A stretch of 58,758 nt of DNA, filler included, from Sphacelaria rigidula (GCA_964200075.2; 8 parts of 8 records of this genome joined end to end with filler, not necessarily neighbours in it); one strand, 5' to 3'. Counted from the first letter of the whole stretch, positions 3,146 through 56,750 are shown. Numbers and translations are program-made. The notes: generated by a model not told the origin, from the letters alone.

Positions 3146-4227
3146 TGAAAAAAAATCTACCAAACATCTGGCTATTAGTGAGTACGATCTCAATACTCTA
3201 CCCGAGTTTAGGGTGCTTGGAATACGAATTTTCAAGAGCCCAAATTTAGAAAATATGCTACCCTACACACCATTAAATCTTCCGGGTCGTGCAAATTAGC
3301 AGAATCAAATACAGCATAACGATTTCCGCCCAGTTACAGTTTTGATCATTGGCAGTAACGAGCCGGGGCTGAGGTGCAAATTTCGCAGGAAAGAGTCTGG
3401 AACAGGTATACCTGATGGTCATGTCGCCACAAAGAGATACATCATCGACTGCCTGGGCCAATCACACGGCGAAGTATATATATTTATATGGAGATATGTA
3501 TAGTTTTTTTGTCAAAAATGTATGGAGGCGAGGTGGGTACTCGTTTTTGGCTCAGTGTCCAGGTGTACCCGATCGTGTCGTTTGCTTCCACAGGAAGCTT
3601 TTTAAATCCATGCAGCGGCACCATTCTCTGTTGAACTGCCGATGATGATTCGAGCGTTTTCCCTTCTCTGACTCGAATGTTTCAACAAATGAGCGCACTG
3701 TTGGAGAAGGTCGAGTCTCTCCTTCCTAGTCATTTTCTTTCTTCTCCTATCCTATTTTATTATTTTTTCCCCGAGTCTACTCTGCTTGTTGTTATTCCTT
3801 CTCTGCGTTCTTCACCTTTTTTTCAGCAAGTTTTTCCGTTTTTTTTTCTTCAATCTCGGGTACGTCTATCATGTAACCACGGCTGGATCCATGGGGTATC
3901 AATAACGGTGCGACGATCAATCTATTAACCAAAATCAATCTTTTGCGCGCGATGTCCGGATGCTAATCTATGGACAAGCGTCGTACCGCAAGATCGTCTA
4001 AATCCGCGACAATGGACGTTGAGTACAGCACCAGTCAAATATTTCAGTCTCCTCCTCTCTCTTCCTGTTATGGTCTCTTCTCTCTTCCCCTGTCCCCCCC
4101 TATCTGCGACTTCCAGATCCCTGTTTCTTGCTTTCCGTCTGCTCCTCTATTTTTCTCGTCTTCTCTTGCCTGTTTGTTTCCCTCTCTCGCTATCTCTCTC
4201 TCTCCCTCCCTCCCTCCCCACCTCTCT

Positions 4228-4296
4228 ATTGCTCCGCCTCGAAAGGGATGCGTAGTTAATGGTCAAACGACCAAGGCAAGCAATTAATGAGTACGC
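4228..4296 (+). mobile_element. 5'-truncated LINE 3' end (family A) in a C-tract
   Basis: ctccgcctcgaaagggatgcg...aatgagtacgccccc. 12-bp TSD ccccacctctct at 4216-4227 and 4312-4323. Confidence 0.8.
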
Positions 4297-4544
4297 CCCC
4301 CTCCCCTTCCCCCCCACCTCTCTCTGCTTCAACTCCTTTCTGATGATCCTCCCTAACCCCTGTCGCCCTCTTTACGCTCCCCATGTGGGACAGGTGCGCT
4401 CTTCCCCGTGGCGCTTGCACCAAGATAAATCGAGGCAACACGCCACCACTTCTGTCTCTTCGTCATCCGGTCTACGTCACCCGGTGCATGTACGTCCGGG
4501 TCACCACCCATTGTGCCGGAGAGTCTACTCATCGTGCGCGACTG

Positions 4545-4722
4545 ACGAAATCTACCCGCAGTACAAAACACCCGCCTGCTCTACCGGGAAATCTACCCGC
4601 AGTGTACTCTATCCATTATACACGAACTACATCCGCTTTACACGGAATCTACCCGCTAGTCTCGGAGTTCGACCCGCTATACCCAGATATCGACCCGCTC
4701 CACCGAAAAATCTACGCCCGTT
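4545..4722 (+). repeat. Degenerate short repeat cluster (AATCTACCCGC / TCGACCCGC, ~6 copies)
   Basis: aaatctacccgcagt at ~4548 and ~4589, with variants at ~4646, 4669, 4690 and 4709. Confidence 0.5.
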
Positions 4723-4843
4723 GAAGCTTGTACGCGTTTGCTCCTCATCTTCTAGTCTTTGATCCCAAACTGCAAGCTCTCCCACGGCATCCCATCGTAC
4801 ATGTTGCCCTGTCGGTCACCCCCCTCATCGTATTGCGTATGGT

Positions 4844-5149
4844 GAGACAGCCATGAGGCAGTTTGTATCCCCGTGGCTGTCTGCGGTAGTGGTGATACCA
4901 GAAAATGAAGCAAGTCATTGGAGTCTGTCATTCATATGCGAGGTGATCAGTACGCTTCGGGCCGAACAATATTGGCAGGATGCAGCTCACCCTTCATACG
5001 ACTCGCCGAACACACCACGGCGCTTTTGCGTTTGGTGATTGATTACGATCCTGGTCCGGCGAAAACCCGGCGAGCGCCGTCTCGGCTAAGTAAGGATGCG
5101 AAGTCAACGGTCTTAAGACCGCGGCTTGCAAGATTATGAGTACACCCCC
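4844..5149 (+). mobile_element. ~310-bp SINE-like element (family B), full length
   Basis: Colinear with 31551-31858(-). Ends gcaagattatgagtacaccccc, and its last ~70 bp align with family A. Confidence 0.7.
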
Positions 5150-5458
5150 TTGCGTTACGTGGTTTTACCGACGACCCACCGCGATTTATGTCCATGTGGC
5201 GCATCAATGGGCAACAATCTAGCAGGTCATTGATGCAGATGCAACACACGCGTCCGTCTCCGTCCTCTGACCTGTTACTCTCGAGACTCTTACCATGATG
5301 TGGTGGTGAACGTTAGGCCGGGGGGTGTACTCATGTTTTGACGCGAACGTCGACTATTTTTCACGTCAGAGCAAGATGTCACTGTAATACTTCTAGACTG
5401 CTATTCTCTTACAGTTATCGAAGAAGACCGTCGTTCAAGACACATGCGCGCGCGCACG

Positions 5459-5461
<3 letters not shown>

Positions 5462-5514
<53 letters not shown>
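5462..5514 (+). repeat. (CA)n microsatellite
   Basis: Direct reading. Confidence 0.95.
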
Positions 5515-5516
<2 letters not shown>

Positions 5517-7068
5517 AAACGGTATACATGATGCTAGCGGTACAACAATTGAAAAAAAACTGTTCCCACACCACAGACCACAGAAGCAAGCAAAATTTGA
5601 ATGGGTGCATGCCCGCCCGCGAGGATAATGATGGTAACCGCGGAAATCTGTGTACCGATAGCGTCGCAATTTTTTGGTTGCCTGTGTACAAGTTTGTTCT
5701 TGTGGATGTCGTCGTGAGGTGCCACTTACAATCAGCTGCTGCAGCTAGCTACACGACGCCAGAGTGAAAGTAAAATTTTGACGAAAGTCAAGTGGGATTG
5801 GGGAGTGCTGATCCATTCCTCGACACAAAAATGTCGCGCAGTTTTTGATGATAAATGATTGATTATCTCACATTAGTTGATTGCAACAATCAAGCCCGTG
5901 ATCAGGAGCAGCAAAAATAGAACAAGACAATAAAAAGAAGAGAAAAAGACAGAAGCAACGGCCTCAGAAAGGAAAGAAAGGGAGCAGTGATGACAACAAC
6001 AACAACGACAAAATAACGACAAAAACATACACAAGCACGAACAGCACAAAAAGATGATGATCGCGCGTTACGTCGCTGATTGCAACACTCCGGCTCGTGA
6101 TCAGAAAAAAAGGAGAAAAATAAAGAAAAACCGGAAAAAAAAAAAGAACAAAACGTAAAGAAAGGAATGCAATGGACAAGAAGACAGAGCCAGGCTCGCG
6201 ACGACAGCGGCGGGTGGGGGGGGGGGAGCGGGGAGCACAGACGAAACAAAAAAACAGACAATAAAAAAAAGAAATCACCAGGAACAAAATATGAGCGAAT
6301 CGGAGATGGGAACCAAACACAATGCTCCACGTATCTGGCGTGGTCTATGATGAGTTGCTGTTGATACTCTCGGTTCCAGGTGCTGTCGGTGCATCTTGAC
6401 CTGCAGCTTTCGCGTGCCGTATCGCTGGTTGTGCGTCATCTTTTTGGCACCAGCCCGCCATAAACCTTATTCATGTATTACTCTAGATCTCATTTACTTG
6501 GTTGTGTGTTGGTCTTATTCGTCTGTGCATCTGTTCATATATCCACATATTTATATATTTCTTTTTGATCCGCCATACTTTCACACCTTCACTCCCCCCG
6601 GACAAGCGTAGTCTGGAGGGAGTACAACCCGCCTCTCCCCCGGTACTATACCTGCCTTACATTTTGGTATATCACAGGTTGGATCATGACTCCCGTCCCG
6701 CGTCCGCGTCGACTCTCACCAAAATTTTGCCCCTCCTCACGTCTCCAGTTTTTTTCAAGACAGATCAGATACTCCTGAGAGAAAAAAACATAAGGGATTG
6801 TATCTGCTGGAAATCGAAGCCCCTACTTATCCCTAACCGATTTCAAAACATAATAGTTACACCACCGGGGCGCGGCGGAATAATGCCGCGAAAGCCCCCC
6901 CCCCCCCCCCCCCGCCCCGCGTAGGGCACGGGAGTCGACAGGGGGGGAGGGCGGGTNNNNNNNNNNAAAACCAACCCCCCACTTATCCCCAACCGATTTA
7001 AAAAAAAAAAAGTTCCCCCCCCGGGGGGCGGGGGAATAAGGCCCCGAAAGCCCCCCCCCCCCCCCCCC

Positions 7069-7200
7069 GTGTATGGAAGAAACGTGTTGAGCGCCGAAAT
7101 GTTGGAGGTGTGTCGATGACGAGTAAGAACGGCGCTCCGTCTCGAAAAGGGATGCATGGTCAATAGTCAAACGACTGAAGCAAGCAATAAATGAGTACAC
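7069..7200 (+). mobile_element. 5'-truncated LINE 3' end (family A) between two poly-C runs
   Basis: gtatggaagaaacgtg...ctccgtctcgaaaagggatgc...aatgagtacaccccc. Confidence 0.8.
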
Positions 7201-7259
7201 CCCCCCCCCCCACCCCCCACCCCCCCCCCCCCCCCACCCCCCCGCCCCGCCCCAGCCGC

Positions 7260-7359
7260 NNNNNNNNNNNNNNNNNNNNNNNNNNNNNNNNNNNNNNNNN
7301 NNNTTAATTAATTAANNNNNNNNNNNNNNNNNNNNNNNNNNNNNNNNNNNNNNNNNNNN
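7260..7359. other. Artificial contig linker N44-TTAATTAATTAA-N44 (also 14618-14717, 21976-22075, 29333-29432, 36690-36789, 44047-44146, 51403-51502)
   Basis: The same 100-nt spacer with stops in all six frames recurs 7 times. The intervening contigs are 7259, 7258, 7258, 7257, 7257, 7257, 7256 and 7256 bp. Confidence 0.98.
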
Positions 7360-10300
7360 ACTCGACCGATGACGACTCGTTTACTGACGACTCGATCGCC
7401 GACGACCCGACCACTGACGGTTCGTTGACAACCAGTTCAACCCCTGACGGCTCGTTGACCGACAACTCCACCACTGAGAACTCGTTTAATGACAACTGAT
7501 TCACCGCCGACTGGACCACTGACGATGCCACCACTGTTGATTCGCTCGCTGGCGAATCCACGATGGACGACCCACTCGCCGTGACTCGACCACTGTGGAC
7601 TCGACCGCAGACGACTCCACGACCAACGACTCGATCACTGACGATTCCACCACTGACGACTCCATCACTGACGACTCCACCACTGACGACTCCACCACTG
7701 ACGACTTCACGACAGGTGAGTTGGTGACAGACGACCTCACCATAGATGCCTTCGTCATGGACCATCCAACAACTCATGACTCAACCAGACATGACCTTCC
7801 GCTACGACTCAAGGGCAGACGGTCTGACTCATCGCGAGTGACTCGACTACCGGACGCTCGTTCACCGACGCATCGACCCCGTTAGACACATCCACTGACT
7901 AGGGCACCACCAAGTTGACAACCAGAATCTCCACCATATACTACTTCATCACACACGGCGGTACTACAAGCGACCTGATCACTTGCTCACAGCACTCTTG
8001 ATCACGGACGAGACAGCCGTGAAGGCGGCGACCAAAGACAGTTCGAACAGATACGGGTCGACAACCGTCGACTCGACCGATGACGACTCGTTTACAGACG
8101 ACTCGATCGCCGACGACTCGACCACTGACGGCTCGTCGACTGACAACTGCACCGTTGACAACTCGTTCAATGACAACTGATTCGCCGACGACTGGACCAC
8201 TGACGATACCACCACTGTTGATTCGTTCGCTGGCGTCTCGACGATGGACGGTCCACTCACCGTGACTCGACCACTGCGAACTCGACCGCAGACGACTCCA
8301 CGACCGATGACTCGATCACTGACGACTCCACCACTGACGACTCGATCACTGACGACTCCACCACTGACGACTCCACCACCGACGACTCTACCACTGACGA
8401 CTCTTCGACGGGTAAGTTGGTGACAGACGACCTTACCATAGATGTCTTCGTCATGGACCATCCAACAACTCACGACTCGACCAGGCATGACATTCTGCTC
8501 AGACTCAAGGGCTAACGGTCTGACTATCCGCGAGCGACTCGACTACCTGACGCTCGTTCACTGACGCATCGACCCCGTCAGACACCTCCACTGACCAGGC
8601 TACCGCCAAGTTCACAACCAGAATCTCCACCATATACTACTTCATCACACACGACGGTACTACAAACGACCTGATCACTTGCTCACAGCACTCTTGATCA
8701 CGGACGAGACAGCCGTGAGGGCGGCGATCAAAGACAGTTTGGACAGAAACGGGTCGACCACCGACGACTCGACCGATGACGACTCGTTTACTGACGACTC
8801 GATCGCCGACGACCCGACCACTGACGGTTCGTTGACAACCAGTTCAACCCCTGACGGCTCGTTGACCGACAACTCCACCACTGAGAACTCGTTTAATGAC
8901 AACTGATTCACCGCCGACTGGACCACTGACGATGCCACCACTGTTGATTCGCTCGCTGGCGACTCGACGATGGACGACCTACTCGCCGTGACTCGACCAC
9001 TGTGGACTCGACCGCAGACGACTCCACGACCAACGACTCGATCACTGACGACTCCACCACTGACGACTCCATCACTGACGACTCCACCACTGACGACTCC
9101 ACCACCGACGACGCCACGACAGGTGAGTTGGTGACAGTCGACCTCACCATAGATGTCTTCGTCATGGACCATCCAACAATCCACGACTCAACCAGACATG
9201 ACGTTCCGCTACGACTCGAGGGCAGACGGTCTGACTCATCGCGAGTGACTCGACTACCGGACGCTCGTTCACCGAGACATCGACCCCGTTAGACACATCC
9301 ACTGACTAGGCCACCACAAAGGTGACAACCAGAGACTCCACCATATACTACTTCATCACACACGACGGTACAACAAGCGACCTGATCACTTGCTCACAGC
9401 ACTCTTGATCACGGACGAGACAGCCGTGAGGGCGGCGACCATAGACAATTTGAACAGAAACAGGTCGACAACCGACGACTCGACCGATGACGACTCGTTT
9501 ACTGACGGCTTGATCGCCGACGACTCGACCACTGACGGCTCGTTGACTAACAGATCGACCTCTGACGGCTCGTTGACTGACAACTGCACGACTGACGACG
9601 TGTTCAATGATGACTCATTTACCGCCGACTGGAGCACTGACGATGCCACCACTGTTGATTCGTTTGCTGACGATTCGACGATGGACGACCCACTCACCGT
9701 GACTCGACCGCTGTGGACTCGATCGCAGACGACCCCACGACCGACGACTTGATCACTGACGACTCCACCACTGACGACTCGATCTCTGACGACTCCACCA
9801 CTGACGACTCCACCACCGATGACACCACCACTGTCGACTCCACGACAGGTGAGTTGGTGACAGACGACCTCACCATAGATGCCTTTGTCATGGACCATCC
9901 AACAACTCACGACTCAAGACTCGACCAAGTATCATTCCGCTACGACTCGAGGGCAGACGGTCTGACTAATCGCGAGAGACTCGACTACCGGACGCTCGTT
10001 CACCGACGCATCGACCCCGTTAGACACCTCTACTGACGAGGCCACCACGAAGTTGACCACCAGAATCTCCACCATATACTACTTCATCACACACGACGGC
10101 ACTATAAGCGACGTGATCACTTGCTCACAGCACTCTTGATCACGGGCGAAACAGCCGTGGAGGCGGCGACCAAAGACAGTTTGTACAATAAACGGATCGA
10201 CCACGGTCGACTCGACCGATGACGACTCGACCACTGACGACTCGATCGCCGACGACTCGACCACTGTCGGCTCGTTGGCAACCAGTTCAACCCCTGACGG

Positions 10301-13300
10301 CTTGTTGACCGACAACTCCACCACTGACAACCCGTTCAATGACAACTGATTCGCCGACGACTGGACCACTGACGATGCCACCACTGTTGATTCGTTTGCT
10401 GGCGTCTCGACAATACACGATCCACGCGCCGTGACTCGACCACTGTGGACTCGACCGCAGACGACTTCACGACCAACGACTCGATCACTGACGACTCCAC
10501 CACTGACGACTTCATCACTGACGACTCCACCACTGACGACTCCACCACTGACGACGCCACGACAGGTGAGTTGGTGACAGACGAACTCACCATAGATGCC
10601 TTCGTCATGGACCATCCAACAACTCACGACTCAACCAGGCATGACGTTCCGCTACGACTCGAGGGCAGACGGTCTGACTAATCGCGAGCCACTCGACCAC
10701 CGGACGCTCGTTCACCGACGCATCGACCCCGTTAGACACATCCACTGACGAGGCGACCGCATAGTTGACAAACAGAATCTCCACCATGTACTACCCCATC
10801 ACACACGATGGTACTACAAACGACCTGATCACTTGCTCACAGCACTCTTGATTACGGGCGAGACAGCCGTGGAGGCGGCGACCACAGAAACTTTGAACAA
10901 AAAAAGGTCGACCACCGACGACTCTACCGATGACGACTCGTTTACTGACGACTCGATCGCCGAAGACTCGACCACTGACGGTTCGTTTACCGACAATTCC
11001 ATCCCGGGCGGCTCGTTGACTGACAATCGCACTACTGACGACTCGTTCAATGACGACTCATTTACCGTCGACTGGACCACTGACGATGCCACCACTGGTG
11101 ATTCGTTCGCTGGCGACTCGACTATGGACGACCCACTCACCGTGACTCGACCAATCCGGACTCGACCGCAGACGACTTCACGACCGACGACTCGATCACT
11201 GACGACTCCACCACAGGCGACTCCACCACCGATACTTCCACCACCGATGACTCCACCACTGACGACTCCACCACAGGTGAGTTGGTGACAGACGACCTCA
11301 CCATAGATGCATTCGTCATGGACCATCCAACAACTCACCACTCGACCGGGCATGTCGTCCCGCAACGACTCAAGGGCAGACGGTCTGACTAATCGCGAGC
11401 GACTCGACTACCGGACGCTCGTTCACCGACATATCGACCCCGGTAGACACCTTCACTGACGAGGGGACCACAAAACGACAACCAGAATCTCCACCATATA
11501 CTACTTCATCACACACGACGGTACTACAAGCGACCTGATCACTTGCTCACAGCACTCTTGATCACGGGCGGGACAGCCGTGAGGGCGGCGACCAAAGACA
11601 ATTTGAACAAAAACAGGTCGACAACAGACGACTCGACCGATGACGACTCGTTCACTGACGGCTCGATCGCCGACAACTCGGCCACTGACGGCTCGTCGAC
11701 CGACAGATCGACCTCTGACGGCTCGTTGACTGACAACTGCACCACTGACGACTTGTTCAATGACGACTTATTCACGACCGACTGAACCACTGACAATGTC
11801 ACCACCTTGATTCGTTTGCTGCCGACTGGACGGTGTGCGACCCACTAACCGTGACTCGACCACTGTGGACTCGACCGCAGACAACTTCACGACCGACGAC
11901 TCGATCACTGACGACTCCACCACTGACGACTCCACCACCGATGACTCCACCACTGACGACGCCACGACAGGTGAGTTGGTGACACACGACCTCACCATAG
12001 ATGCCTTCGTCATGGACCATCCAACAACTCACGACTCAACCAAACATGACATTCCGCTACGACTCAAGGGCAGACGGTCTGACTAACCGCGAGAGACTCG
12101 ACTACCGGACGCTCGTTCACCGACGCATCGACCCCGTTAGACACCTCTACTGACGAGGCCACCACGAAGTTGACAACCAGAATCTCCACCATATACTACT
12201 TCATCACACACGGCGGTACTACAAGCGACCTGATCACTTGCTCACAGCACTCTTGATCACGGTTAGGACAGCCGTCAAGGCGGCGACCAGGGACAGTTTG
12301 GACAGATACGGGTCGACCACCGACGACTCGACCGATGACGCCTCGTTTACAGACGACTCGATCGCCGACGACTCGACCACTGACGGTTCGTCGACTGACA
12401 GTTCAACCTCTGACGGCTCGTTGACTGACAACTGCACCACTGACGACTTGTTCAATAACAACTGATTCACCGCCGACTGGACCACTGACGATGCGACCGC
12501 TGTTGATTCGTTCGCTGGCGTCTCGACGATGGACGACCCATTTGACGTAACTCGACCACTGCGGACTCGACCGCAGACGACCCCACGGCCGACGACTCGA
12601 TCACTGACGACTCGATCACTGACGACTCCACCACCGATGACTCCACCATTGACGACTCCACCACAGGTGAGTTGGTGACAGACGACCTCACCATAGATGC
12701 CTTCGTCATGGGCCATCCAACAACTCACGACTCGACCAGGTATCATTCCGCTACGACTCAAGGGCAGACGGTCTGACTAATCGCGAGCGACTCGACTCCC
12801 AGACGCTCGTTCACCGACTTATCGACCTCGTTAGACAACTCCACTGACGAGGCCACCACAACGTTGACAACCAGAATCTCCACAATATACTACTTCATCA
12901 CACACGACGGTACTACAAACGACCTGATCACTTGCTCACAGCACTCTTGATCACGGGTAAGACAGCCGTAAAGGCGGCGACCAAAGACAATTTGAACATA
13001 TACGGGTCGACAACCGACGACTCGACCGATGAATCCTCGTTCACTGACGACTCGATCGCCGACGACTCGACCACTGATGGTTCGTTGACTGACAGTTCAA
13101 CATCTGACGGCTCGTTGACTGACAACTCCACCATTGACAACCCGTTCAATGACAACTGATTCACCGACGACTGCACCACTGACGATACCACCACTGTTGA
13201 TTCGTTCGCTGACGACTCGACGATACACGACCCACTTGACGTGACTCGACCACTGCGGACTCGACCGCAGACGACTCCACGACCGACGACTCGATCACTG

Positions 13301-39600: not shown

Positions 39601-40299
39601 GTGCGTTCTGAGGTCTGAATCCCTCCAGAGTACCAAAAATATGGTGCTGGGGAGCACGTGGTTTGCGTAAACGTCCCTTGAAGGGAAATATGAACAGCAG
39701 AGGGGAATATGAGCATCATTCCTCTGGAGGAGGGACCGCCTATGGCCTCTAAGGCATTTGTCGCGACTCCGGAGGACATAGCCGTGCAGTATCCTCCAGC
39801 GTGTACATTTACACTGGTGCACTTGTGTCCTAACTGCTTCCAGGGAACCTTTAGGACCATCACGCCAGATACAATACCACAACCAAAACCCTGCAGCAAA
39901 GAGCACCAGTTGGGTGCAGGGATAGAGGTACAGACTATAGTAGTTGGGTATGATGTATGTCTTGGTGGTGGAAGTCGGAGGAAAGGTGGCCGCTTCGGGT
40001 CCAGTTCAACATGCGAGGATACGATGGAACAGCAACACCAAACTTTTCGGGAATAGACATCACCCAGTGCTTGAAGTACGGAACAGAAATCGACAAGTCA
40101 CCGTTCGTATTAGAAAATAATGCGCGTAGAACGCTTTGTAGATTGGAGAGTACGGATTTTGATGGAAGAGGAGTACGGATTTTGATGGAAGAAACTTCTC
40201 CGGGCCCCCATTTCTGTTGTATCAGCCTGTCAAAAGTCTTTCCTCGTTCATTAATGCCTGGCTGGAGGACAGGGAAGTCGTCCTCCCCCGGTTTTGAGA

Positions 40300-42530: not shown

Positions 42531-43650
42531 CAACCGCGGGGGCTAGGATTAGCGCCCAGGGAAAGTCCTGAAATAACGGATGGTTTCCTTGGAAAGCAGT
42601 CGTCCATTGTAACGGGTATAAACCGTTCAAGTGAGGGGATTTCGATTTTGAACAGGGAAAGATGTAGTACGATACCCCTGAATACTATTCTACATGCTTC
42701 ATTCCGAGCGATGTTCCCCAAATACCCCCACAGTTGTCACGAAACATATCTGAGGGAAAGGGTGCCAGCACTTTCCGTCGCTAGTTCAGACCCCCTTTGA
42801 GATCCAGAGAAGAGGTATTCAAACTGTAGCTGATGCGGGTTCTAACTGAAAAAAAACGGCTCGGATTTTTCAAGCGCGCTGCACAACAGCATGCTTCGAC
42901 AGTCCCACCCCGAAACCAGTTCCCAACACAGCCACGGCGGCGGTGGCCATACAAGGCGTGATAACTGGTTCAGACTGGATAAAGCGCCTCTCATGGGTGC
43001 TACTGGCGAAACAACCCCAAGCATGGGACTAACCCTAACCCCTGTTGTGTGTATGTGCAGCTTTTTTGTGTGGGGCATCCATTTTATCCAACTGACGACT
43101 GTACTGTAGTGATGCTGTACTCTGGTGATGGTGTATCTCAACAGACTGCTGAATGATGCTGCGTTTCAAAGATCGCTGGCGTCTGTCGCCGTATTGGATC
43201 GTTTCGCTGACGGCAGTCGTCGCCGGCGCAACAGTATGACGGCTTCCTGAAATACTCGACAAGAGGCGCTCAAAACCTCGATGACGAATCCAAAGAAGTA
43301 TGTTTTCAGCATGCTTTGTTACGAGTTGTGTAGCGCTTAGAGGCACGTCCTCCTGTTCAAAAACCGCCGCACCCTGACGACGGTGGTTTTTCTTTTGAAC
43401 TTGTCATCATGCTTAGGCTGCCGTGTAAAAGCTTCTGGCACAAGTGCCATGGCCGAAGCTACTTGCGTACCCCGAGCCTACTGGACAAGATGCATGAAAT
43501 TTCGATGGTCGCTTCAACCTCTCCCAAATGTTATACCTCAAAAGCGGATCCAGGCTGTTGCATGATAATGACTCTGCATACATTTACACGCGAATTGCGG
43601 CTTAAGCTCGGCCAGGCGTTCTCCCCGACCATTTTCTATATTTATGCCCA
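41440..43650 (-). pseudogene. Possible decayed hAT transposase ending at a CAGTGGATCCTAGAAAAT terminus
   Basis: Minus-strand fragments in hAT order: FACKCMQ..NFMHL (BED-like), GFERLLSSISGSRHTV..TTAVS, QLDK(W), FW..LSRV..FFS..SGDIVIDTR (dimerisation-like). Interrupted by stops and frameshifts. Motif resemblance is judged by eye. Confidence 0.4.
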
Positions 43651-45703
43651 TCGCCCGCATGTTGGTGAAAAAACGGCGTTGTTGTCTTCAAGAAGAACAG
43701 CTGTTGTGAACCCCAAACAGGTCATCGTTCATCTGAGTCCACCTGCGGGGGGTTCGCGGTTCAGCGATAATTTCACAAACTGTACAAGTGCAACGGCGCA
43801 CGGCAAAAACAAACGCACCGCCCATCATACCACGCACTTGATTGCAAAGAGAGAATGAGTTGTTGGAAGCGTTTTAATCTTCTTGAAAGAATCCAAACCT
43901 TTGGTACGGCACTTGTTGAAATCGATTTAAACAAAAAACACGCTTTTCAACGAGGCACATAACTTGCGGGCATACAACAGCGAATCATCTATGTTGAGGA
44001 TGGTACTTTTTGTTGAGGATGAAACACAGTCGGAAAAACTTCGCGCNNNNNNNNNNNNNNNNNNNNNNNNNNNNNNNNNNNNNNNNNNNNTTAATTAATT
44101 AANNNNNNNNNNNNNNNNNNNNNNNNNNNNNNNNNNNNNNNNNNNNCATGTGGGCGAAATTGCTGCAAACGAGTTCAATAGTGGGATTGCAGCCGGTTTG
44201 TCAGACGGTCTCCGGTGAACTTTTTATGGGGGTGCTATATCGGCATTAGTCAATCGTGGTGAACACCATTATTACACCCTTCTCAAGGTGCCTTCACCCC
44301 TATCACATCATAAAGGACGCGAAGTAGGCGCATAGAAGTGCGCATATTTTCGCTGGAAATGGCTTAAAATGGGGCTTAACACAAGGTGGCAAAGCATGCA
44401 TAAAAAAATGAGCATAAAACATGGGATCTTACAAATTGGGGATGGGTCTATCTAGAGGGTATTTTTATCCACCGGAGTCACTTTACCCTCGAGAGGATGA
44501 AAATCACGATAGAAGATTTCAAGGGGGTAGCCGAATGGCCGCGTGTGCTGTGATCACGGGTTCATGGACGAGATGTTTCATTCCCAAAAGTAGTGACGTT
44601 GTAGCAGATGAGTCGCGATCTTTTCGCATGCGGCCTTTTGTTTTCTACTATGTATGAGTGGGGTTTCCGCGCAAAACCTGTTCCACCGACGCCATGTGGT
44701 GAAATCGATCATTTATATATTTTTTGTTTTTTTCTTTTGTCGTTTTCTTTTCTCTTCGTTTTTTTTCTTGGTATGCTCTGTTTGTCTGTTTCACCTTTTC
44801 ATTTTTTCTTCACTTTCCTTCGGCGTGTGTTCTAGTTGTGCTTTGTCTCGAGTACATCAATCATGTGACCACAGCTGGATCCCTGGGAATCAGGTCAAGT
44901 ACGATAATTCATCTACATAATCAATCAGATCACGGAAGGTGTCCGCACCAAACAGAGTATACTACGGCCGGCAGAAGGTACTGCGTAGAGATCGGAACGT
45001 TTTTTAATTTGTTTGTGAAGCCAACAACAAGAACAACAAAATGCAACCATCTGATGACGGGATTTTCGCCAGATTGAGGCTAGCTTTTGATTGAGAGTGA
45101 AAACCCGAATAATAGGAAATCCTAATCCACTTATCGACTATTTTTTGTTGTGGAATACTTTGCTGAGACTGGCAAGGAGCGGCTCGAGTAAAATCTATTA
45201 GCCGTGGGATGAATCTGAAGTATAGTTTTAGTGCATTAGCCTCGTCAACCGTCAGGGATCTCGAACTCCAGACTTCCAGAGATGGTCGATTGGTAGCTGA
45301 AATAGTTTAACTTCCGGAATGTGTCTCCAGGCCTTAAACGGGGCCTTATACGCTGTCTGTGGTAGCTTGCTACTAAAGCCTCTGATATCTCTGAGAAAGT
45401 CATCGATGTGTAGCTGTAAGCACATGACAATGTTATTAGAGGCAAACACACACACTCACAAGGTGAAAAAAATATCAAGTTAGAGTGAGTCATAAACTCA
45501 CTTGCCATCAATACTGAACCCTAATCTGGCAAAACCCGGTTCAATATATCTGCGTACGCGCGACATACATTGGCTACCAAGTGAACGGTCCCATGACCAC
45601 AACGAACCCCCGCCGCACAAAATACCTACAGTGCTCCATTCATAATCAATGATGGAACACATGAAAGTAACGTCTTCCCATCAACCCCTTGAGCACCTGA
45701 GGT

Positions 45704-45959
45704 GAACAACGCTTCGGTAGGGGTGCACTTTTTGCGCAAAATCGTGTCTGATTCAGGGCTGTCAATAACTCTAGATACACAAGGATATGGGTCAGGGCAT
45801 CCCCGTTTGCAAATCTATTCGGGATATCCCTAGCAAATTGGAATAGTAAATCCTGGCGTGCTCTCACATGTTTCAGAAGTCGCGTTTTGGAGGAGATAAA
45901 GGGCTCCTAGCAGTTCCTATCCCGGAACATATTTGTGCACCCCTACCGTAGCATCCGTC
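45704..45959. mobile_element. 256-bp Sola-like MITE
   Basis: Perfect 4-bp TSD aggt. TIR core cggtaggggtgcac/gtgcacccctaccg. Confidence 0.78.
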
Positions 45960-45971
45960 AGGTGTCCATTT

Positions 45972-46229
45972 GAGTCATGCTACGGTAGGGGTTGCACGTT
46001 TGGGTCCAAATCTTCCTCATTCATCATGGGCTCCCGAAATTAGGAGCTACACAATAATATGGGTCAAGATATTCCCGTTATCATCATCATTCGGGATATC
46101 CCTAGCCCATTGGAATGCTAATCGTGGCGTCTTCTTACATATTTCATGAGTCATTTATTGGATGAGATAGAGGGCTCCTAACAATTCGAACCTTAAGAAA
46201 ATTTGTGCACCTCTATCATAGCACCACTC
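45972..46229. mobile_element. 258-bp Sola-like MITE
   Basis: gagtcatgctacggtagggg...tagcaccactc. TSD attt/attc. Confidence 0.75.
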
Positions 46230-49014
46230 ATTCGTGGGAACGACACCATCTTCACTTCTAGAAAAAGTAAACACGGTGCAGACTCCAAACGAAAATGATC
46301 CCAATTCCACAAATAGATACGCCCGGCGGTGAAGAGGTTAAAAATTGCACACTCAAATCAAGTGATGGACACTCAATCTAGTGTATGCGACATGATACGA
46401 TGACACCCAAATGGTTAAAGATAGTAGGATAATATTTAGTCTAGGATCAAGCCTTTAATGATTGCCTTATGAGTCATGTACTCCGGAAGGCTCGGTGCGA
46501 GAGTTGTGTACTCTGGGAGACTCACGATGAACCGGAAGGATATTCTAACAACCCAAAGCAGAGTCAAATCAAGCACTACTGTACGCTCAACAACACGAAG
46601 CTCCTGACTCACTGGTTAGCTTTGTTCTTGAGGACTTGTTCACCCGAAGCAGGTGGTGGCTGAGTGTACAGCAGATGATCAGATCCTCGAAGATGTGTTT
46701 GATCAGTTTCTACTGTATTACTGACCTCCAAAGCGACGGTTTGAGAACGAAGTGGGCGGTATGGCTTCTGCATCAAACCTTTCTTCCGACCCGGAAGATA
46801 TTCAGCCATCACTAAAAAATCTTATACGTCACGAATTATTTCAAGCTGCGTAAACGTACACGCAGGCAGGCCTTCATCCCTCAGCAGTTGCCATTGGTAG
46901 TTACTCAATCGAAATCGATGACCGTATTATGCCTTCAAAACCACATAATCCAACATCCGGTAGCGACCACGGCGTACGTGCTTTCAAAACGCGACTACAG
47001 TTTGTGCAGCAGCTGCTCCAATGTACGTGCAATTATTCACCAAAAATGCACTTCTCCTATCCGCCAGTCATATCTTGTCTGAATCTTGGAGAATAACACA
47101 GCAACTCTATACTCCTTGTCCTATCTCATCGCATGTAAAGGTTGTCGGTTGTGGTGATGGGGGGGCGATCAACGTTTTTATAGCCCGAAAATATCCACGT
47201 CGAGACATTGCTCGAGGTATAAAGCAATGTTGTTTGAGCCGCGTTCATGTCAAGGCGGAATGTGCACGCCGGATTCCAGTTTGGATTTTTTGTTCACGTA
47301 GTTATGTTGAAATCAAATGTTCTGACGGCTTTATCAAGAGACGAAAATTTATTCGCACGGGACGACGGACGGGACGGGACGGGAAGGGATATTAACAGAT
47401 ATTGCTCGACGCAGTAAGCACTGCTAGGTTGAATAACCTTGTTGTCGATATTCAGCAACATGCCGTCATGTAGCTTGGCTTCGTAAGCCCTACCCCGCCC
47501 TGCACGTCCACGAGATTTTCTTGTTTCTCGGTCACAGATTTGTTATCATGTTTGTCGTCCCTTCCTTCATTATTCTTTGCTTTTTCTCGAGTTTTCTCTG
47601 GCAATGCGTATTTTTCCGTTTCCTTGCCGTGGTTGATTTTTGTCTGATTTTTATTGATCTTGATTGTCGCACATGAACTGGTCCTCGAAGGACCCAGCCG
47701 TGATCATATCATGAATGTACCCAAGACAAACAGCTTAGGGATTGGTTGCTTACGTCTACCTCTTGGAGACGAGTGGGTTCGAAGTGAACCAGTGAATGTG
47801 TTTCGGAAATTCACAATAATCGATCTTTCAATCCAGCAAGTGTACTGTTCTACACCATGCGAACGAATCCCGTCGTTTCGAGTGATAATTTACGCTCACC
47901 CCCTTCCGCGAGAGGAATCCCACTAAGTATGGCACAAGGGAAAACAACCTTTGAAACAATACCAGGAGCACCGGTAAAGACAGCAACAACAGCCGCTGCA
48001 GCAGCAGCAACATCATCACCAGCAGCAACACCAGCAGCCACAGCATCAACGATAGCACCGACCATTTTCGCTAAGTTCCCCGGTCCCTAGGCACAATCGA
48101 TCTGGTATAACCACGAATCATTCGTGTAATAAGTAAAGGTGTGCACAGAAAGCACCAATAGTACTTACCTAAGGAGTCGTCAGCTGTGCGCGGATATGTG
48201 TTGTAGTCTGGCCACGAGATGATAAGGGTATCATCACTCTCAAGGAACATACCAGGCCAGGGGTTGCACGAAGCGAACGGCTAGCCGTAATGAATAACTG
48301 CAGTCGAGTGGAGTAGCTCTCCAGCTCGTGGCTCACAGATCCTTGAGTCCAAACCGGCACTGCATCATAAAGCAAAACATAGACTCACTTTCACGTGCAG
48401 AGAAGTGCTCTTGACTTGCTTGCGAGCGAGATGTCTACGAGTGGTGCCTGATAGCTTTTGTTATTAGGCGCTGCTAGGTAGCTAAACGAATGTTGCTAGG
48501 TAGCCGGAAGTTCTGAAGGACCAGGGGCCCGGGTGGAGCACGCCAAATTGGAACACAGCGCTAATATGCGAATGGAATAAAACCTACTGCACATGCCATG
48601 CGCACTTCGAAACGCCTACTGCATATACAGCCGATATCCGCCGTGACATATAGCGTTTCAAGTATGAATAATCGGACAGGAAAATACGGCGACGAAGCGC
48701 GGGTAGTAGAAAATACTACGCGGCGAAGTCTTGGTGGGTGCCTTTTTCTCCCGCTTTCGGATCGGACCTTCGACTACAATTAATTGCTGCAACCGCGTTC
48801 GCTAAGTTACAATCGGGCTTGAAAACCACCCTCAAACAAATGGATGACGACAAAAAGGCACGAAGTGACATGGTGGTAGTTGCGGTGTGCCATGTGTACC
48901 AAGGGCGCTGCAACGGCACATACGTGGCTCTCGTGCTTCACTGGTGGGGCATCGTCTTGAACCCGCAAATGTTGAAACATTCTTTGACTGTTCTCACCTC
49001 GGTTGGCGGTCTTC

Positions 49015-49450
49015 CACTATCATGGAAACTCCATCTGGGATACGGACACTTATCTGAGACACCATATGGATCTGGGAAATCCATTTGGGATATGGGTATC
49101 CCTCTTGGGTATCAATCTGGAATGTAGATATTCCTCCGAGTTATCCATATACGATGCGGACATCACTCTGGGATACGAGCAGTCATCTGGGATATTGACA
49201 TCCCAGATGGATCTCTTAGAATGTACTTCTCCCATGGACATCTCCGATGGACATCCCTGATAGATACCCGCGTATCCCAAGTGGACGTCCATATCCCAAA
49301 GACATTCCTGACGGATATTATCCATATCCCAGATAGATGTCCGAGACGGATACGATATTCCAGTTAGATATCCCAGATAAATGTGATATGATATTCCAAA
49401 TGAATATCCCAGATGAATGTGATACCTCAGATGGAAGTTGCACGATAATG
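49015..49450. mobile_element. CACTA-like non-autonomous element with subterminal ATCTGGGATA repeats
   Basis: cactatcatggaaactccatctg / cagatggaagttgcacgataatg. The motif is forward in the left half and inverted (tatcccagat) in the right half. No TSD seen. Confidence 0.6.
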
Positions 49451-51260
49451 ATGCACGGCTTGCATAGCATGTGCGGATAACTTGATTTTGGACACATCGC
49501 TTAATCTCTCTCTCCCTTTCGAAGGGTTCGTTCGTCATCGAAATGTTCTCACGCGGTATTGGCCTTTGCTCCAAGGCTTTATTGTCGAACATTGGATCAG
49601 CATTTCCGCAGCTCGTTGATTTTTATCAAACTGTTTTACCTGTAAATAATACATCGTACATATACTGTAGGCAGAGAGGACTACACATATGAAAACGAAT
49701 TCAATAAGCGGATACGCGACTAGTAGGATGGTGATGATAGTAAAGTAGCAATGTTTCAAGAGCCAGGCAGTTTTACTTTGCGGTATTTTTACTTAAATCG
49801 ATTGATCATCTCTTATTGGATCTTCCTGAAATCACCGTTAGGTTGAAATACTCGTGTACTTGCACCAAAGGGAAATATAATATGCGCCCGAATTGTCCCC
49901 ATCGATTACCAACTAAAGGGGCGATCATCGCATTCTCGCCGATCAACCACCTCAAGCTAGACTGTTTGTTGTCTTTTTCGGTTGTGAAGACGTTGTTGAA
50001 GTCGCTGGGGCCGCCTGCACTGTCACCCGCAGAATACACACGGCGATGATGAATCAGAGCTCAAGGCTGGTGTTTTCAAGTATTCAAGGGGAACGATATC
50101 CCAAATGTCACTCTCAGGTGAGTATCAGCACTTCTGATTGTAGAATGGGTCGTCAGCCCGCGCGGTGCCGAACACCTCTTGCCTCACACCTCATACTCTT
50201 AGTTCATTTGTAACGCTAGCAATGCAGAGTATAGCTTTCGTCACAAACACCCATCATCCTGTCTCTAGCGGGACGGGCGCAGTGCATTCCAACCTGAGAC
50301 TGATGCTGCGATAGCTCCCCCTAGAAACATGGCTAGTTTGAGGAGGCAAAATCTGCATGAGAACCAAAATGGCAAAAGTCGGGCACTCTGAGCTGCTAAG
50401 AATGCCGACGCTAAGGATAGTTCTCGTCACAGTCGGCCATAGGAGGCGCTTTATGCGGTCTGAAACCAGCCGTCATGCGCGGGATGACCATTGTCTTCGT
50501 GACAGTTCCATTATCTTGGACCGAGTACCCCAAACAGCCCCCATAATCGGAACGGGATAATGATCACGAGCACTTTCAAGAATTGTCATGAATAAACAAC
50601 CATCAATCAAACCTCAATTTCCTCCCTCATATCGATCTGAAATCTCCCAGATCTCTCAAATCCACACACTTTCTGGAAGATATCAAAAACATTCGAAATC
50701 AAATAATTTCAGAAACAATCAGCCCCCTCAAGAATATATTCAATCAAATCTCACTTCATCTCAATAACTTCCTAACCCGCACCGAATACAATATTCCCCT
50801 GGGGAAAATATTCTCAACTCGAAAACAATACCGCGTCAAAAAAATAGTTCTGGCATTTACGCGCACCCTTGTGCTTGTGTGCCCATAATATTTGCGTATA
50901 CCGGAATTCTCTTCCTGGGGAATGCGGCAATTCATCACGACAGATTCCGTAGACAAAATCGTATTTCAACTATATCGACCAATTCCAACCAGGTTTCGGA
51001 AGCACAAAGGCCTCAAAGATGGCTTTGCAAACATGTGAAAAAAAACATCCTTCAATACATCATGAAGCATAATAGTACATGGCAAAGTAAAAAACTCCGC
51101 GTGTAAAGACGCAAAGCAAAACTCCCTCCAATGTTTACTCCCTATACTGTTGCTTGAACATCAAGACACTCTCAATTGAATGTTCAACAGCCCCCCAGCC
51201 CCCCTGCTACAAAACTATTCCTGCGTGTATAACAACCCCACCCCCCTTCCCGGTTTTGCT

Positions 51261-51330
51261 TGGTGCTCCGTCTCGAAAGGGATGAGTGATCAATGGTCGA
51301 AAGACTGAGGCAAGCAACGAATGAGTACGC
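51261..51330 (+). mobile_element. LINE 3' tip (family A)
   Basis: ggtgctccgtctcgaaagggatg...gaatgagtacgcc between C-rich tracts. Confidence 0.75.
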
Positions 51331-51548
51331 CGGCGCCCCCCCCCCGCCCACCATCGTTGGGAGAGAGGAAGTCGCGTAGCGGGGCGGGAAGGGGGAGGAG
51401 AGNNNNNNNNNNNNNNNNNNNNNNNNNNNNNNNNNNNNNNNNNNNNTTAATTAATTAANNNNNNNNNNNNNNNNNNNNNNNNNNNNNNNNNNNNNNNNNN
51501 NNCAAGCAAATCAGGATCATGGCTCCCCCCCCCCCCCCCCCCCCGACT

Positions 51549-51613
51549 TGCTCCGTCTCGGACGGGATGCGTGGTCAATAGTCAAACGACTAAGGCAAGC
51601 AAGGGATGAGTAC
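51549..51613 (+). mobile_element. LINE 3' tip (family A), in the intron of the LRR-type gene
   Basis: Poly-C, then tgctccgtctcg..gggatgcgtggtcaatagtcaaacgactaaggcaagcaagggatgagtac, then poly-C. Confidence 0.8.
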
Positions 51614-51701
51614 CCCCCCCCCCACAAACACACACTTCTCCCGCTTCTCAACCCTTCCCCTAACAAATCCTCACAGAGCATCATCTCGTCTATCCAATCA
51701 C

Positions 51702-52740
51702 CTGAAAGAGAAAATGCCGTGAGCTTTTTCGAGGCAACCAGCAACCTCAAAAGCCGGGCGCAGAGCTCATGCGGCATATGGTACGCCCGCGGCACATACA
51801 CCGTCCCGTGCGACTCCCAAGCGTCCACCATGGCCTCGAGGCAAAGATTCGACAATACCATCGTCTCTCCGGACGACAACAGCCGCCGCCGCCGCAGTCG
51901 CCCGCCGTCGGTCCCGGCTGCATCACACGCGTCCCCGGCCGCCTCCGGAGATCCCACCTCCGACCTCGTCTCGTCTGACTGTTGTTGCACCACCGCCTGG
52001 GGGTGGTCTCCTCGAACCTCGCCTTGTGCTCCATATCGTGGCCGATGCGGGCCTTCCATGTCCTGCGCGGCCGCTGGCGCCTGCCCGTACACGACTACTT
52101 GCGGAGCATTTCGGGGGACATCAACAGCGTTGAACATCTCTACTGCTGCTCCTTCCCCTCGCGCTCTCCGTCCTGCTCGTGGTGGTGGTGGCGGTAGCGG
52201 CGGAGGCGGCGGCGGAGGCGGTGGTGCTTGCAGTAGTCGCGGCCTTCGTTCTCGCGCGGTATCCATGACATTTCGACTACCGTTGTCATCATGAGCATCA
52301 CCATTACCATCAATATTATTTTCTCCATCTCCATCACCATCGGGACGGTAACCGATGCGGTCATCATTGCGATAGTCCCCGCGGGGTTGATTCCCCCCCG
52401 GCGGGGCTCTAGCCCCTGACCCTGCCCTCTCCTCAATCCCGCTCCGGCGCCGCGCCACCCTCACTTCTGCCGGCCCCGGTTCACCAACCCTCACAGCGCT
52501 GCCGTGAGACCCTCGTGCGACGGCGCTGCTGCCGGAAAACGCAAACTCGCTGAGACGCGCCGCCTGGTCATAGCGGCGACCCAGACCCCCGCCAACGATG
52601 CGGTGCGCGGTAACGGAGCGCAAACGCGGCCTTCCAGAGTAGGGAACGATGCCGTTAGTGCTGGCGTCTCCGTCGGTTTCGGCGGGGCCGTAGAATAGCG
52701 GGGCGCCGGGGCGCAGCCCCCGTGAGACGGGTTCAGGCAT
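51702..52740 (-). CDS. First exon (346 codons +1 nt) of a protein with a disordered Gly/Arg/Pro-rich N-terminus and the cap region typical of LRR (RNI-like) proteins
   Basis: Long GC-rich ORF from ATG 52740, with LSNLCLEAMV...MPHELCARLLRLLVASKKLTAFSLS, then donor CAG|gtgatt. The rest of the gene is off the contig. Confidence 0.75.
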
Positions 52741-53415
52741 ATATGTATGCGTGTCTGCTGTTGGAAGATTTTTCGGGTCGGGACGAATGAAAAGCACAAA
52801 CAACCGATAGCGGTGGGGAAAAGGATGGGGGGAGTGGGGGGGGAACAAGGGTCGTGTGGCGCGGGGTAAGTTTGATTGCTTTTGATGCTATTCGTCTGAT
52901 CGATTTTCTTCCTGCTTTTTTTCTTCCTTTTTTTTTCTCCTCCGGTTACACTTTTAACTCATTTCCGCGGGGCAAGTCTGATGTATTACGGGGTCCGTCC
53001 GTCCATCCATGTCCCGTCGATATGAACCTACCTGCCTCGATAGGCTGGCAGGTATCGTGGAATACTAGATCAACACTTTCAGAACTGTGTCGACTTGAAA
53101 AGGAAGAAAAAAGGCTGCTCGCGGAACTGTACATCGTCGCGTGTTCAACGGCGCAACGAGTGAAAAATGGGAGAGAAGAAAGCGTTACATGATAGTACTG
53201 CATCTGTTGGGACTCGAAGCTTTAACTCTGCCCCCCAAAAAGTTTCAAGATTCACCATTTTAATTTAGACCACCAGGGGGTGCATATTGACGAACTCGGC
53301 GATGGTCACAGCAAGAATAGTCAGGTAGGATAAACGGAAAACAGTCACTGACTAAAGGCACAGTACCTTCAGATTTTGCCCGATAGCATGGGGGGAGGAG
53401 GGAGGGGGGGGGGGG

Positions 53416-53507
53416 GTTACTCATGATCTTGCAAGCCATAGTCATATTGCCGCTGACCTTATCTCTCTAAAAAGCCGGGACGTAGCACGCCGAGTTTTCG
53501 CCGGACA
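53416..53507 (-). mobile_element. Family B 3' fragment between G-runs
   Basis: ggggttactcatgatcttgcaagccatagtcata...aaagccgggacgtagcacgccgagttttcgccggac. Confidence 0.7.
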
Positions 53508-54506
53508 TCCGGGGGTCTCCAGTGGCCGGGGGGTGTGGTTTTTGAGGGGGGGAGGGCGGAGTGGGGGGGTGTCTGTCGGCAGAGGAGCCGAAAAGCTCAC
53601 CAAGTCAACCATGTGTATTTGGAAGTTTCTCGCGGAAAATTATGAGCCGTGCACGAGGCCCGAGAGGCGCGGAATGCCCATTCTGACCAATCACAATCGT
53701 CAAAATGAGCACGTTCTTCCGGTTCGGGTGGACTAAATCGGACTAATTCGCTGTCTACCCCCACGACTCATTTTGGTCATGGGAAATCAACCATAGATTT
53801 ATCACATGAGTACAAATACAACGTGATTTGTATCCTGCTCGTGGTCTACGCCGCCTGCCTGACTCATCATGTGCTGCCAAAATAACTTCACACTGCCCGT
53901 AGTGTTCTTGTTGAGCACTAGGAAGAGGCACCAGCAGCATGCAGTACATTGTGTTCAGTGGAGAGTAATGGCACACTTATTCCGTCTCTTGCCGTTGTAT
54001 TCCGTGAAGACGTACAGCACACATACATACCGACTCTGCACGCAATTGACTGCAGGATCGACACTGGTCAGGGGCTTCCCGGTACTATTTTTTATTTAAA
54101 TGACAAATATCCACATATTCATAAAAAAAAGCGTTTTGTATTGTGACAAAGGAATGATTCTGAGCCCCAAAAGTGGCATAGTCCAACTCAGTCCATCTGC
54201 TGGGGGGTCGCTGTCAAAGTGTTAAAACACTTACGTAGTATCGTCACTGCTCTTGCTCAGAATTGAAGTTATCCCAACACGCACATTATGATCTAGCTCG
54301 ACCATCATGTTGACCGCAAAATAAACGCAAGCGTACAACACAAAAATGGTCTAGCTTACGCAGTGAGTGACGTGTTTCACAGCGTCATTGCCAACCGACA
54401 CCAACCCCATAGAAGGTTCGCCCCGACAAAGCCGAGACGGAGCACGCCGGGTTTCCGCCGGACCAGGCTCAGGTGGAGCGGGGTGGGCGCGGGGGGGGGT
54501 GAGGGG

Positions 54507-54866
54507 CGTACTCAATTGTTGATTGCCTTAGTCGTTTGACCATTGACCACGCGACCCTTTCAAGACGGAGCACCGTTCCTACTCCTAATGGAGAGACACT
54601 TCCAACATTGCGGCGCTCATTCCGTTCCTTCCATACATTGCACAAAAAACTTCTACATATCTTATTCCCATCCTGTTTTGCCGTCTGCGGCCACCATCTA
54701 TCTCCTCGTATAGTCATCGTTTTCTCCCTACTGTCTAATGCATCAAACAATTCCATGCCACCTTCGTTTACTTCCCACATTTCCCCCTATGACAAGTCAC
54801 GTTCCTCCTTGTATACTTCACATTCTGCCACTCCATGAGTTCTACTCTTTATTGCTTCACCACAGG
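54507..54866 (-). mobile_element. Longest family A copy: C-terminus of a LINE ORF2 plus 3' UTR
   Basis: Encodes CGEAI-ESRTH-VAECEVYKEER (CCHC-knuckle-type motif, one frameshift), then ..GDRWWPQTAKQDGNKICRSFLCNVWKERNER. Ends tgagtacgcccc. Confidence 0.8.
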
Positions 54867-55865
54867 GGGACGGAGGGAGGGGGGGGTGGGCGTAACTGTT
54901 CTCCCACAAGCGAAGCGATTGCCTCCATGATTTCGGTCGCCCAGCGTCGTGCATACTACATTATCGTACAGCACTTTTTTTCGTCTTGTCTACTCTGTTG
55001 TACTGTTTTACCTTTTCTGTTTCTTCCTATTTCTTCAGCGAGTGTATCAGTATTGTTTTGTTGTCTCGGGTGCGTCTATCATGTGGATAATGACCACGAC
55101 ATGACCACGACTCCTCGAGTGCGCATCACGTGGACAATGACCACGACTGGATCATGACTCCTGGGGGGTCAATGAAAGTGCTACTATCAACCAATAAGCA
55201 CAAGAGGGACTTCTGCAGTCATTCGTGCCAAATGGTGTATGACACAGCCGTGCAAACAGGTCAAAGATAACACAAGACGTGCTGCACTGGGGCACTCGTT
55301 GGGGCCACTGAAGTTGACGATTCACTATTATAGATATATGAATATACTATACCCCGACCGAGCGAGATTCTGTCGGACGAAACCAACCCGACATTAGCGA
55401 GGTTACTGCTCTGGATGCGCATCTCATACTGTAATACGAGTGCTTGTACTGTAAAGCGGAATATTCCCAATCGAGGGAATATGTGTATCATGGGAGCGAA
55501 AGAATTTCCAAACTGCCTTCATATTAAATTGAATTGAATCACCCATCAATAATCATGATACATGTGAGATGACGAACACCGAACAGAACTGGAGAGGCTC
55601 AACGCTTGGAACGTCTGTATCGCTGATACCGAACATCGAAGCGATTGTCATTCAACACGCTGAGAGAGAGGTAGGCAGACGTAGTATTATAGCAGGCGTG
55701 CAGAACGGCGGCCTGAACATCCAGCCAGCTCACTGTTCGATTGCAGGCAGTACGAGTGTTCAAGGTGGTACAACCGGAACACTGACTGTACTTTGTAGGG
55801 GTTGGGCCAGCTGACAGTGGTTTTTGAACGAAGAGTGGAGATGCCATTGGCACTTCGAAGAGTTG

Positions 55866-56710: not shown

Positions 56711-56750
<40 letters not shown>

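Follow-up and report, generated by a model that had tools for sequence, protein, structure and literature searches.

C-Tailed, 5'-Truncated LINE Copies Sitting in C-Runs of the Sphacelaria rigidula Genome

Eight 5'-Truncated Copies with One 3' End

We analyzed a stretch of 58,758 nucleotides from the Sphacelaria rigidula genome (GCA_964200075.2), here called the window, which consists of eight equal slices of ~7,259 bp each, joined by the linker N44-TTAATTAATTAA-N44 and interrupted by four further N10 scaffold gaps. The window carries fragments of a long interspersed nuclear element (LINE), here called family A, and copies of a second family, family B. Family-A copies were defined by self-BLAST, by MAFFT, and by alignment to a full element. 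In this way, eight 5'-truncated copies of 65 to 361 nt were found in four slices, with the common 3' end ...ATGAGTAC(G/A), and both the eight copies on four contigs and the variable 5' truncation proposed in an initial annotation, made from the window alone, were thus recovered. With up to three mismatches allowed, the tip motif GGCAAGCAANNNATGAGTAC had eight matches in the window against 0.13 expected, and none of 100 shuffled sequences reached eight. Seven of the matches were family copies. The other, at 48405-48424 with three mismatches, was rejected as a chance match, as it had neither the common upstream sequence nor a C tail.

The longest fragment (54508-54868, minus strand) measures 361 nt by DNA alignment, although its protein similarity extends to ~54880; it encodes ...CGEAIKSRTHGVAEC..., starts at a CCCC of the element, and is followed by a C-rich tail at 54472-54507, which an internal family-B fragment (~54400-54471) adjoins. 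The next longest copy (17093-17335, plus strand, 243 nt) has a C-rich 5' flank at 17061-17086 and a tail that begins at 17336 with C13 and continues with TC. At 7070-7198 (plus strand), a 129-nt fragment lies directly after a C18 run (7051-7068) belonging to a local repeat, and its C-rich tail occupies 7199-7259, up to the slice end. The plus-strand copy of 101 nt at 21567-21667 bears an internal 12-nt deletion and a tail at 21668-21675. Three short plus-strand copies have a common start 65 nt from the 3' end, a position that we refer to as the -65 hot spot: a 65-nt copy at 4230-4294 with a C-rich tail at 4295-4311, a 67-nt copy at 51262-51328 with a C-rich tail from 51329, and a 65-nt copy at 51549-51613, which has a C20 run upstream (51525-51544) and a C10 tail. 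The eighth copy (14718-14786, minus strand) is at least 69 nt long, the slice edge having removed its 3' tip; next to its 5' end come A10 and then the C tail that belongs to a copy of family B.

C Tails, C-Run Flanks, and Target Sites

All seven family-A copies with a 3' end continue into C rather than A, as had been claimed, and the 20 nt that follow GTAC are 70-90% C. The tails are 5 to >50 nt long, with A, T, or G interruptions. On the 5' side, where C-tracts had also been noted, a run of six or more C's occurs within 30 nt upstream of seven of the eight copies, compared with 2,065 of 115,338 background positions (1.8%), and in six of eight copies C makes up at least 60% of the 20 nt upstream, compared with 1.0% of background positions. 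In every one of the eight, the C-run is on the sense strand of the element.

Two target site duplications (TSDs) that begin in a C-run could be delimited, at the two places where the initial annotation had put them. The 4230 copy is bounded by an exact 12-bp duplication, CCCCACCTCTCT (4216-4227 and 4312-4323), beginning with C4, and the 21567 copy by CCCCCCCGGGCCCCG (21554-21568 and 21676-21690), beginning with C7; the length of the latter is 13 bp if only the exact part (CCCCCCCGGGCCC) is counted, or 15 bp with two nucleotides (CG) shared with the element.

Two inserts could be compared with uninterrupted versions of the sequences that they entered. On the other strand, sequences at 961-903 (82% identity) and 890-827 (80%) correspond to the flanks of the 21567 insert, such that 827-961 (minus strand) is a diverged paralogue of this repeat without the insert, with GCCCCCCCTCC (C7) at the corresponding spot; the interruption of a repeat with an empty version elsewhere, as originally described, was thereby confirmed. 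In the repeat entered by the 7070 insert, the neighboring copy 6811-6913 keeps an uninterrupted C19, and the GCCCCGC of the repeat picks up again after the tail of the insert. These results indicated that the inserts had entered C-runs that already existed, in each case with the run on the sense strand. The neighboring repeat copies 6811-6913 and 6967-7068, with an N10 gap between them, end ...GGAATAAKGCCSCGAAAG followed by C18-19, and a similar motif of GCCGAAAAGCC and a C-run flanks the 21567 insert and is present in its paralogue 827-961. The C-runs of the GGAATAAKGCCSCGAAAG/GCCGAAAAGCC repeats served as LINE targets.

The Full Element

When metagenomes were scanned with a tip pattern of 21 bases, four loci were obtained, two of which (L005 and L007) were true members of family A. 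The other two (L006 and L008) were rejected, as they represent one unrelated bacterial-looking coding sequence; in a scan of viral contigs with a looser tip pattern, the four loci obtained were chance matches, none with a C tail. The element is almost complete in both of the true members, and contig L007 contains it with an open reading frame (ORF) of 1426 aa (protein P0001), in which an Exo_endo_phos domain (235-461, E 6.7e-13) and an RVT_1 domain (807-1056, E 1.1e-30) were identified. The eight window copies align to the 3' coding end of this ORF, which bears out their earlier designation as LINE fragments. The domains, the truncated copies, and the TSDs fit together, and the element is a LINE with an apurinic-type endonuclease and a reverse transcriptase (RT). 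Near the C-terminus of P0001, CPCGKAIESRTHIVAEC forms a CxCx8Hx4C motif; the full element has all four ligands of this motif and the 54868 copy has three of the four, in accordance with the CCHC-type C-terminus initially reported for the longest copy.

The frame of L007 ends ...VVNGQTTKASNK, and its stop codon is the TGA within ATGAGTAC, only 4 nt before the end of the element. The 3' untranslated region (UTR) is therefore only GTAC(G/A), and is followed by the (C)n tail. At the end of both L005 and L007, ATGAGTACG precedes a run of C8 or C10. Identity between the window copies and these two contigs is 84-97%, higher than among the window copies themselves. L007 has no further frame of at least 80 aa upstream of the ORF; with 4,996 nt, compared with 5,511-5,867 bp for the Ectocarpus RTEX consensi, its 5' end may be missing. 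Among 7170 candidates, 182 proteins were homologous to P0001 at E<=0.001. The best named homologues were unnamed proteins of Ectocarpus sp. CCAP 1310/34, with 55% and 48% identity, and the Ectocarpus C-termini ...APSSRGRVVNGLTAK match ...APSRKGCVVNGQTTKASNK.

A Noncoding Partner Family

Family B is represented by at least five copies or fragments, with ends at 14827, 5144, 31552, and 53417 and a variant end at 31413; three of them are long copies. The first (14827-15016, minus strand) ends GCAAGATCATGAGTACA and has a C tail at 14795-14826 and a (CA)n tract upstream. The second (4880-5144, plus strand) ends ...GCAAGATTATGAGTACA and has a short C5 tail (5145-5149), and the third (31552-31810, minus strand) has a C-rich tail of the form C25 T C14 T C4 (31505-31551). 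A shorter 3' fragment (53417-53500, minus strand) ends ...GATCATGAGTAA with a C13-rich tail at 53387-53416; the 5' limits of these four features are approximate. The variant (31413-31451, minus strand) is a 39-nt 3' fragment ending ...AACAACAGTA with a C17 tail (31387-31412), and an N10 gap adjoins it.

Families A and B have the last ~70 nt in common, at 65% identity, compared with 86% within family A, and a C tail of 5 to ~47 nt was present in all five family-B or variant copies. Family B showed no similarity to the proteins of this LINE. A label as a short interspersed nuclear element (SINE) was considered and set aside, as the window is without Rfam matches or tRNA genes and no small-RNA head was found. 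Because no such head was detected, we describe family B as what looks like a noncoding, nonautonomous LINE partner rather than as a SINE, in line with the curators' treatment of RTEX-N1 in Ectocarpus.

Family A in Four Sequencing Runs

Logan contigs from four runs of the same organism (X1-X4; up to three samples, one study), in which the DNA of the window is present, were mapped on L007 at 80% likeness. In X1-X4, 111,791, 165,746, 81,380, and 28,859 contigs mapped, respectively, that is, 1.0-2.5% of all records; a family matching such a share of contigs matters for annotating and assembling this genome. Loose contig ends accumulated at the 3' end of the element (1636, 1794, 816, and 243 contigs in X1-X4), and their consensus continued with 13-17 more G on the plus strand, which corresponds to C on the element strand. 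A second accumulation was observed at -65 (396, 404, and 324 contigs in X1-X3), where the consensus was a long run of G, which places poly-C immediately before the copies cut at this point. In addition, joints leading from 177-182 back to 104-108 (70-79 nt) were found in up to 29 contigs per row, and these are head-to-tail units of the 65-nt end plus a tail. Thus, C tails, variable truncation with a -65 hot spot, C-rich TSDs, and tandem units of ~75 nt are features of family A, the last of these genome-wide. Summed contig depth, which is not a copy number, peaked over the last ~340 nt, weakly supporting 5' truncation. In the 5' part of L007, at positions 3763-3933 and 4105-4275, contig depth fell ~100-fold; in these bins, L007 probably differs from the copies of the sequenced organism.

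A Model for Integration into C-Runs

Considering the window, the full element, and the four runs together, we proposed with good confidence that the family-A copies are dead, 5'-truncated remains of an RTE-X-type LINE that has a C tail, inserts into C-runs, and has a noncoding partner. Integration would occur by target-primed reverse transcription. Judging by the bases at the TSD borders, the nick in the two clean cases appears to have fallen on the bottom strand 3' of a G-run, as GGGG^A and GGGGGGG^C. The G-ended primer might then anneal to the terminal (C)n of the RNA, much as in L1, where the poly(A) tail pairs with the T-run at the nick. Such pairing would explain the fixed orientation and the C-first TSDs, as well as the insertion into C-runs and old tails and the tandem units. 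Every insertion would add C's, such that old tails could turn into new targets and arrays could grow.

The 5' junction may be set in a similar manner, by pairing of the C-rich upstream target strand with the complementary DNA of a C-rich motif in the element, because the -65 hot spot coincides with GCTCC, the first C-rich motif counted back from the 3' end, and a CCCC marks the start of the 54868 copy. Alternatively, the hot spot might mark the edge of a structured 3' module; of 12 sequences, 10-11 retain a GGUC-N4-GAC hairpin. Two of four folds also closed with a helix that joins GUGCUC (at -65) to GAGUAC at the terminus, but this helix is not conserved in the other family-B copies and was rejected as evidence. 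More speculatively, and with more doubt than belief, we suggest that the last 65 nt and the C tail might constitute a self-contained minimal retrotransposition module, at whose 5' edge the enzyme would often stop or switch template; its new tails would be new targets and would build ~75-bp tandem arrays, as satellite seeds, and the element could then be the main source of the long C/G homopolymers of the genome. If this reading were true, the family would provide a natural test of primer-tail pairing versus endonuclease specificity in the target choice of LINEs. By a hand count, 18 of 38 C-rich tracts in the window touch a copy, and the copies explain a large share of its C/G homopolymer tracts.

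Several observations weigh against this interpretation or parts of it. An unambiguous TSD was present in only two of the seven copies with both ends; the matches at 7070 and 51549 are pure C and inseparable from the tail, no TSD was found for the 17093 and 51262 copies, and a 7-nt candidate for the 54868 copy was rejected, as it lies 65 nt downstream and is probably a chance match. The 5' flank of the 31413-31451 variant of family B is an exception in being G-rich, not C-rich; here, the insertion may have been inverted or rearranged. The predicted 3' RNA folds were no more stable than those of shuffled sequences (z -0.04 to -1.31), and of the 11 pairs in the consensus fold, only one showed a two-sided change. 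Logan contigs collapse repeats, so that the contig counts are not insertion counts. Finally, the RTE-X label is given by analogy, from the classification in the Ectocarpus paper discussed below and the 55% identity to unnamed Ectocarpus proteins.

Among other explanations, the strongest is that the endonuclease has no preference for C/G-runs and nicks broadly, and that only G-ended bottom strands pair with the (C)n tail and are extended, in which case the C-rich TSDs would reflect primer-template annealing alone. We consider this a serious possibility, if not the favored one. For other LINEs, there is the idea that pairing of the tail helps to determine the insertion site, and the TSDs of the two clean cases begin with C4 and C7, which are able to pair with the tail; nothing speaks directly against it, as the insertions at C18-C20 runs fit a choice of nick and a choice of primer alike. 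It is rather unlikely that the C tail is not copied from RNA at all and instead arises at integration, through slippage of the RT on a few terminal C's or through nontemplated addition of C. Such an origin would account for the very variable and interrupted tails (5 to >50 nt, with A, T, or G) and for loose-end consensus tails that often exceed the 10 C's of L007. However, two independent near-intact copies from other samples have C8 and C10 directly after GTACG, and the Ectocarpus consensus is annotated in its curation table with a (C)n 3' end (PMC12477816); because of these two lines of evidence, we suggest that the tail belongs to the transmitted element, although slippage of the RT may still contribute.

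The upstream C-runs could also be the tails of older copies, produced by nesting or by RT template switching, without any general preference for C-tracts. The 14786 copy does follow the tail of a family-B copy directly, tandem ~75-nt units occur in many contigs, and tandem copies are mentioned in the Ectocarpus table (PMC12477816). We nevertheless regard this as improbable, given that the 4230 insert sits in a CT-rich stretch with only C4 at its TSD, and that the C-runs entered at 21567 and 7070 belong to an unrelated repeat and are retained in its uninterrupted paralogues. Hardly credible is the idea that the C-runs are sequencing or assembly artefacts, or that family A is a SINE and not a LINE. 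N10 gaps do lie near some homopolymers (1263, 6957, and 31476), and two copies seemingly shared one start before the full element was known. Against this, the same ends recur in four runs, in the Ectocarpus library, and in two contigs from separate assemblies; moreover, each of the eight copies aligns to a coding 3' end, and the 54868 copy passes the apparent shared start.

Relation to Known Elements

The initial annotation stated that no C-homopolymer-specific LINE was known to it. This claim of novelty was not upheld, because a family with the same behavior has been described, an outcome that the initial annotation itself had named as a refutation. In a paper on the transposable element landscape of Ectocarpus (Genome Biol 2025, PMC12477816), RTE-X is given as the most abundant LINE group, and its curation table lists RTEX-1_Ec32 with 'single EN-RT ORF; (C)n 3'', that is, one ORF for endonuclease (EN) and RT, and with a 'C-rich' TSD, and RTEX-2_Ec32 with '(C)n termini/TSD'. 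According to the same table, RTEX-N1_Ec32 (607 bp) has '60 bp 3' end 83% RTEX-1_Ec32/RTEX-2_Ec32' and 'can be present in tandem', RTEX-N2_Ec32 (188 bp) 'could be SINE', and the curators' best blastp matches of RTEX-1/2_Ec32 were RTEX-4_NV and RTEX-1_BF (PMC12477816). In the accessible part of the main text of this paper, 'C-rich' does not occur and the tail is not discussed. An RTEX-1 element has also been reported in Saccharina, in the accessible record without details of its tail. The RTEX passages of PMC11203168, PMC5753468, and PMC4421812 contain nothing on tails, and our literature search returned no description of C-tailed LINEs besides the supplementary-table notes of PMC12477816. Thus, for the mechanism of a C-tailed LINE, we found no printed analysis, only notes in a supplementary table, as far as the sources were available.

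Family A and the RTEX-1/2_Ec32 elements, as tabulated, agree in a (C)n 3' end, C-rich TSDs, an EN-RT ORF that in family A appears to be the only one, high abundance, partners with a common 3' 60-100 bp, and tandem copies. They differ in host and are separated by ~55% protein identity, measured to Ectocarpus proteins, the elements themselves being compared by table description and not by consensus sequence. Similarly, family B and the RTEX-N1/N2_Ec32 elements, compared by description only, are alike in being noncoding and in having LINE-like last ~70 nt and a C tail. By this analogy, the element belongs to an already catalogued kind, namely the RTE-X LINEs of brown algae that carry a (C)n tail and have C-rich TSDs. 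Four features are additional here: a stop codon that precedes the tail by just 4 nt, an orientation that follows a strict rule, the -65 hot spot, and the scale on which tandem units occur; the hot spot, the position of the stop codon, and the orientation rule are unmentioned in the table and in the accessible main text.

With its C tail and its insertion into C-runs, the LINE offers a clean natural contrast to the poly(A)/T-run priming of L1. Common to both systems are a homopolymer tail whose complement is found at the 3' end of the strand that was nicked, TSDs whose first bases are that homopolymer, 5' truncation of copies, and mobilization of partners. However, the homopolymer is C/G here and A/T in L1, the tail here probably comes from the element's own sequence and not from polyadenylation, and the partners here share a specific 3' sequence (the stringent type) and not the tail alone. 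The element also resembles LINEs of the RTE clade, such as RTE-1_Ec32 with its (CAA)n tail, in having an apparently single ORF, nearly no 3' UTR, and a simple-repeat tail, and differs in that the repeat unit is one nucleotide, C. Very short 3' UTRs ending in simple repeats were reportedly noted in RTE elements by Malik and Eickbush in 1998.

Other Features of the Window

The whole window gave no Rfam match at the gathering score and no ARAGORN tRNA gene, and no Pfam family was found in its 78 ORFs of at least 120 aa. For the longest ORF (51520-52887, minus strand), the match was a protein of Ascophyllum nodosum, limited to 12% of the length at 71% identity; together with the Ectocarpus homologues of P0001, this gives a slight hint of a brown alga or a related organism as the host. 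Slice 2 (7360-14617) is nearly all a higher-order tandem array with 15-/30-nt units (TCGACCACTGACGAC...) in blocks ~700 bp apart. Its strand skew is strong (GC skew ~-0.2, AT skew ~+0.18), and its minus strand has long open frames with no Pfam match.

Three further features may be related to other elements. The end of slice 5 is a 290-bp (CAA)n tract (36400-36689), which, by analogy with the (CAA)n 3' tails tabulated for RTE-1/RTE-2_Ec32 (PMC12477816), may be the tail of an RTE-clade LINE. At 56595-56750, A-runs of 14, 20, and 38 nt around an N10 gap may be the poly(A) tail of another retroelement. Lastly, a repeat seen three times (1140-1342 and 34940-34997, minus strand) consists of ...TTTGTCGCACTTTGAA, a C-run of 13-28, and TTCGGGACGAGTC..GGTC.CAAGG.ATCAA.CCATC; it is either an unrelated element with its own C tail or a repeat with an internal C-run.

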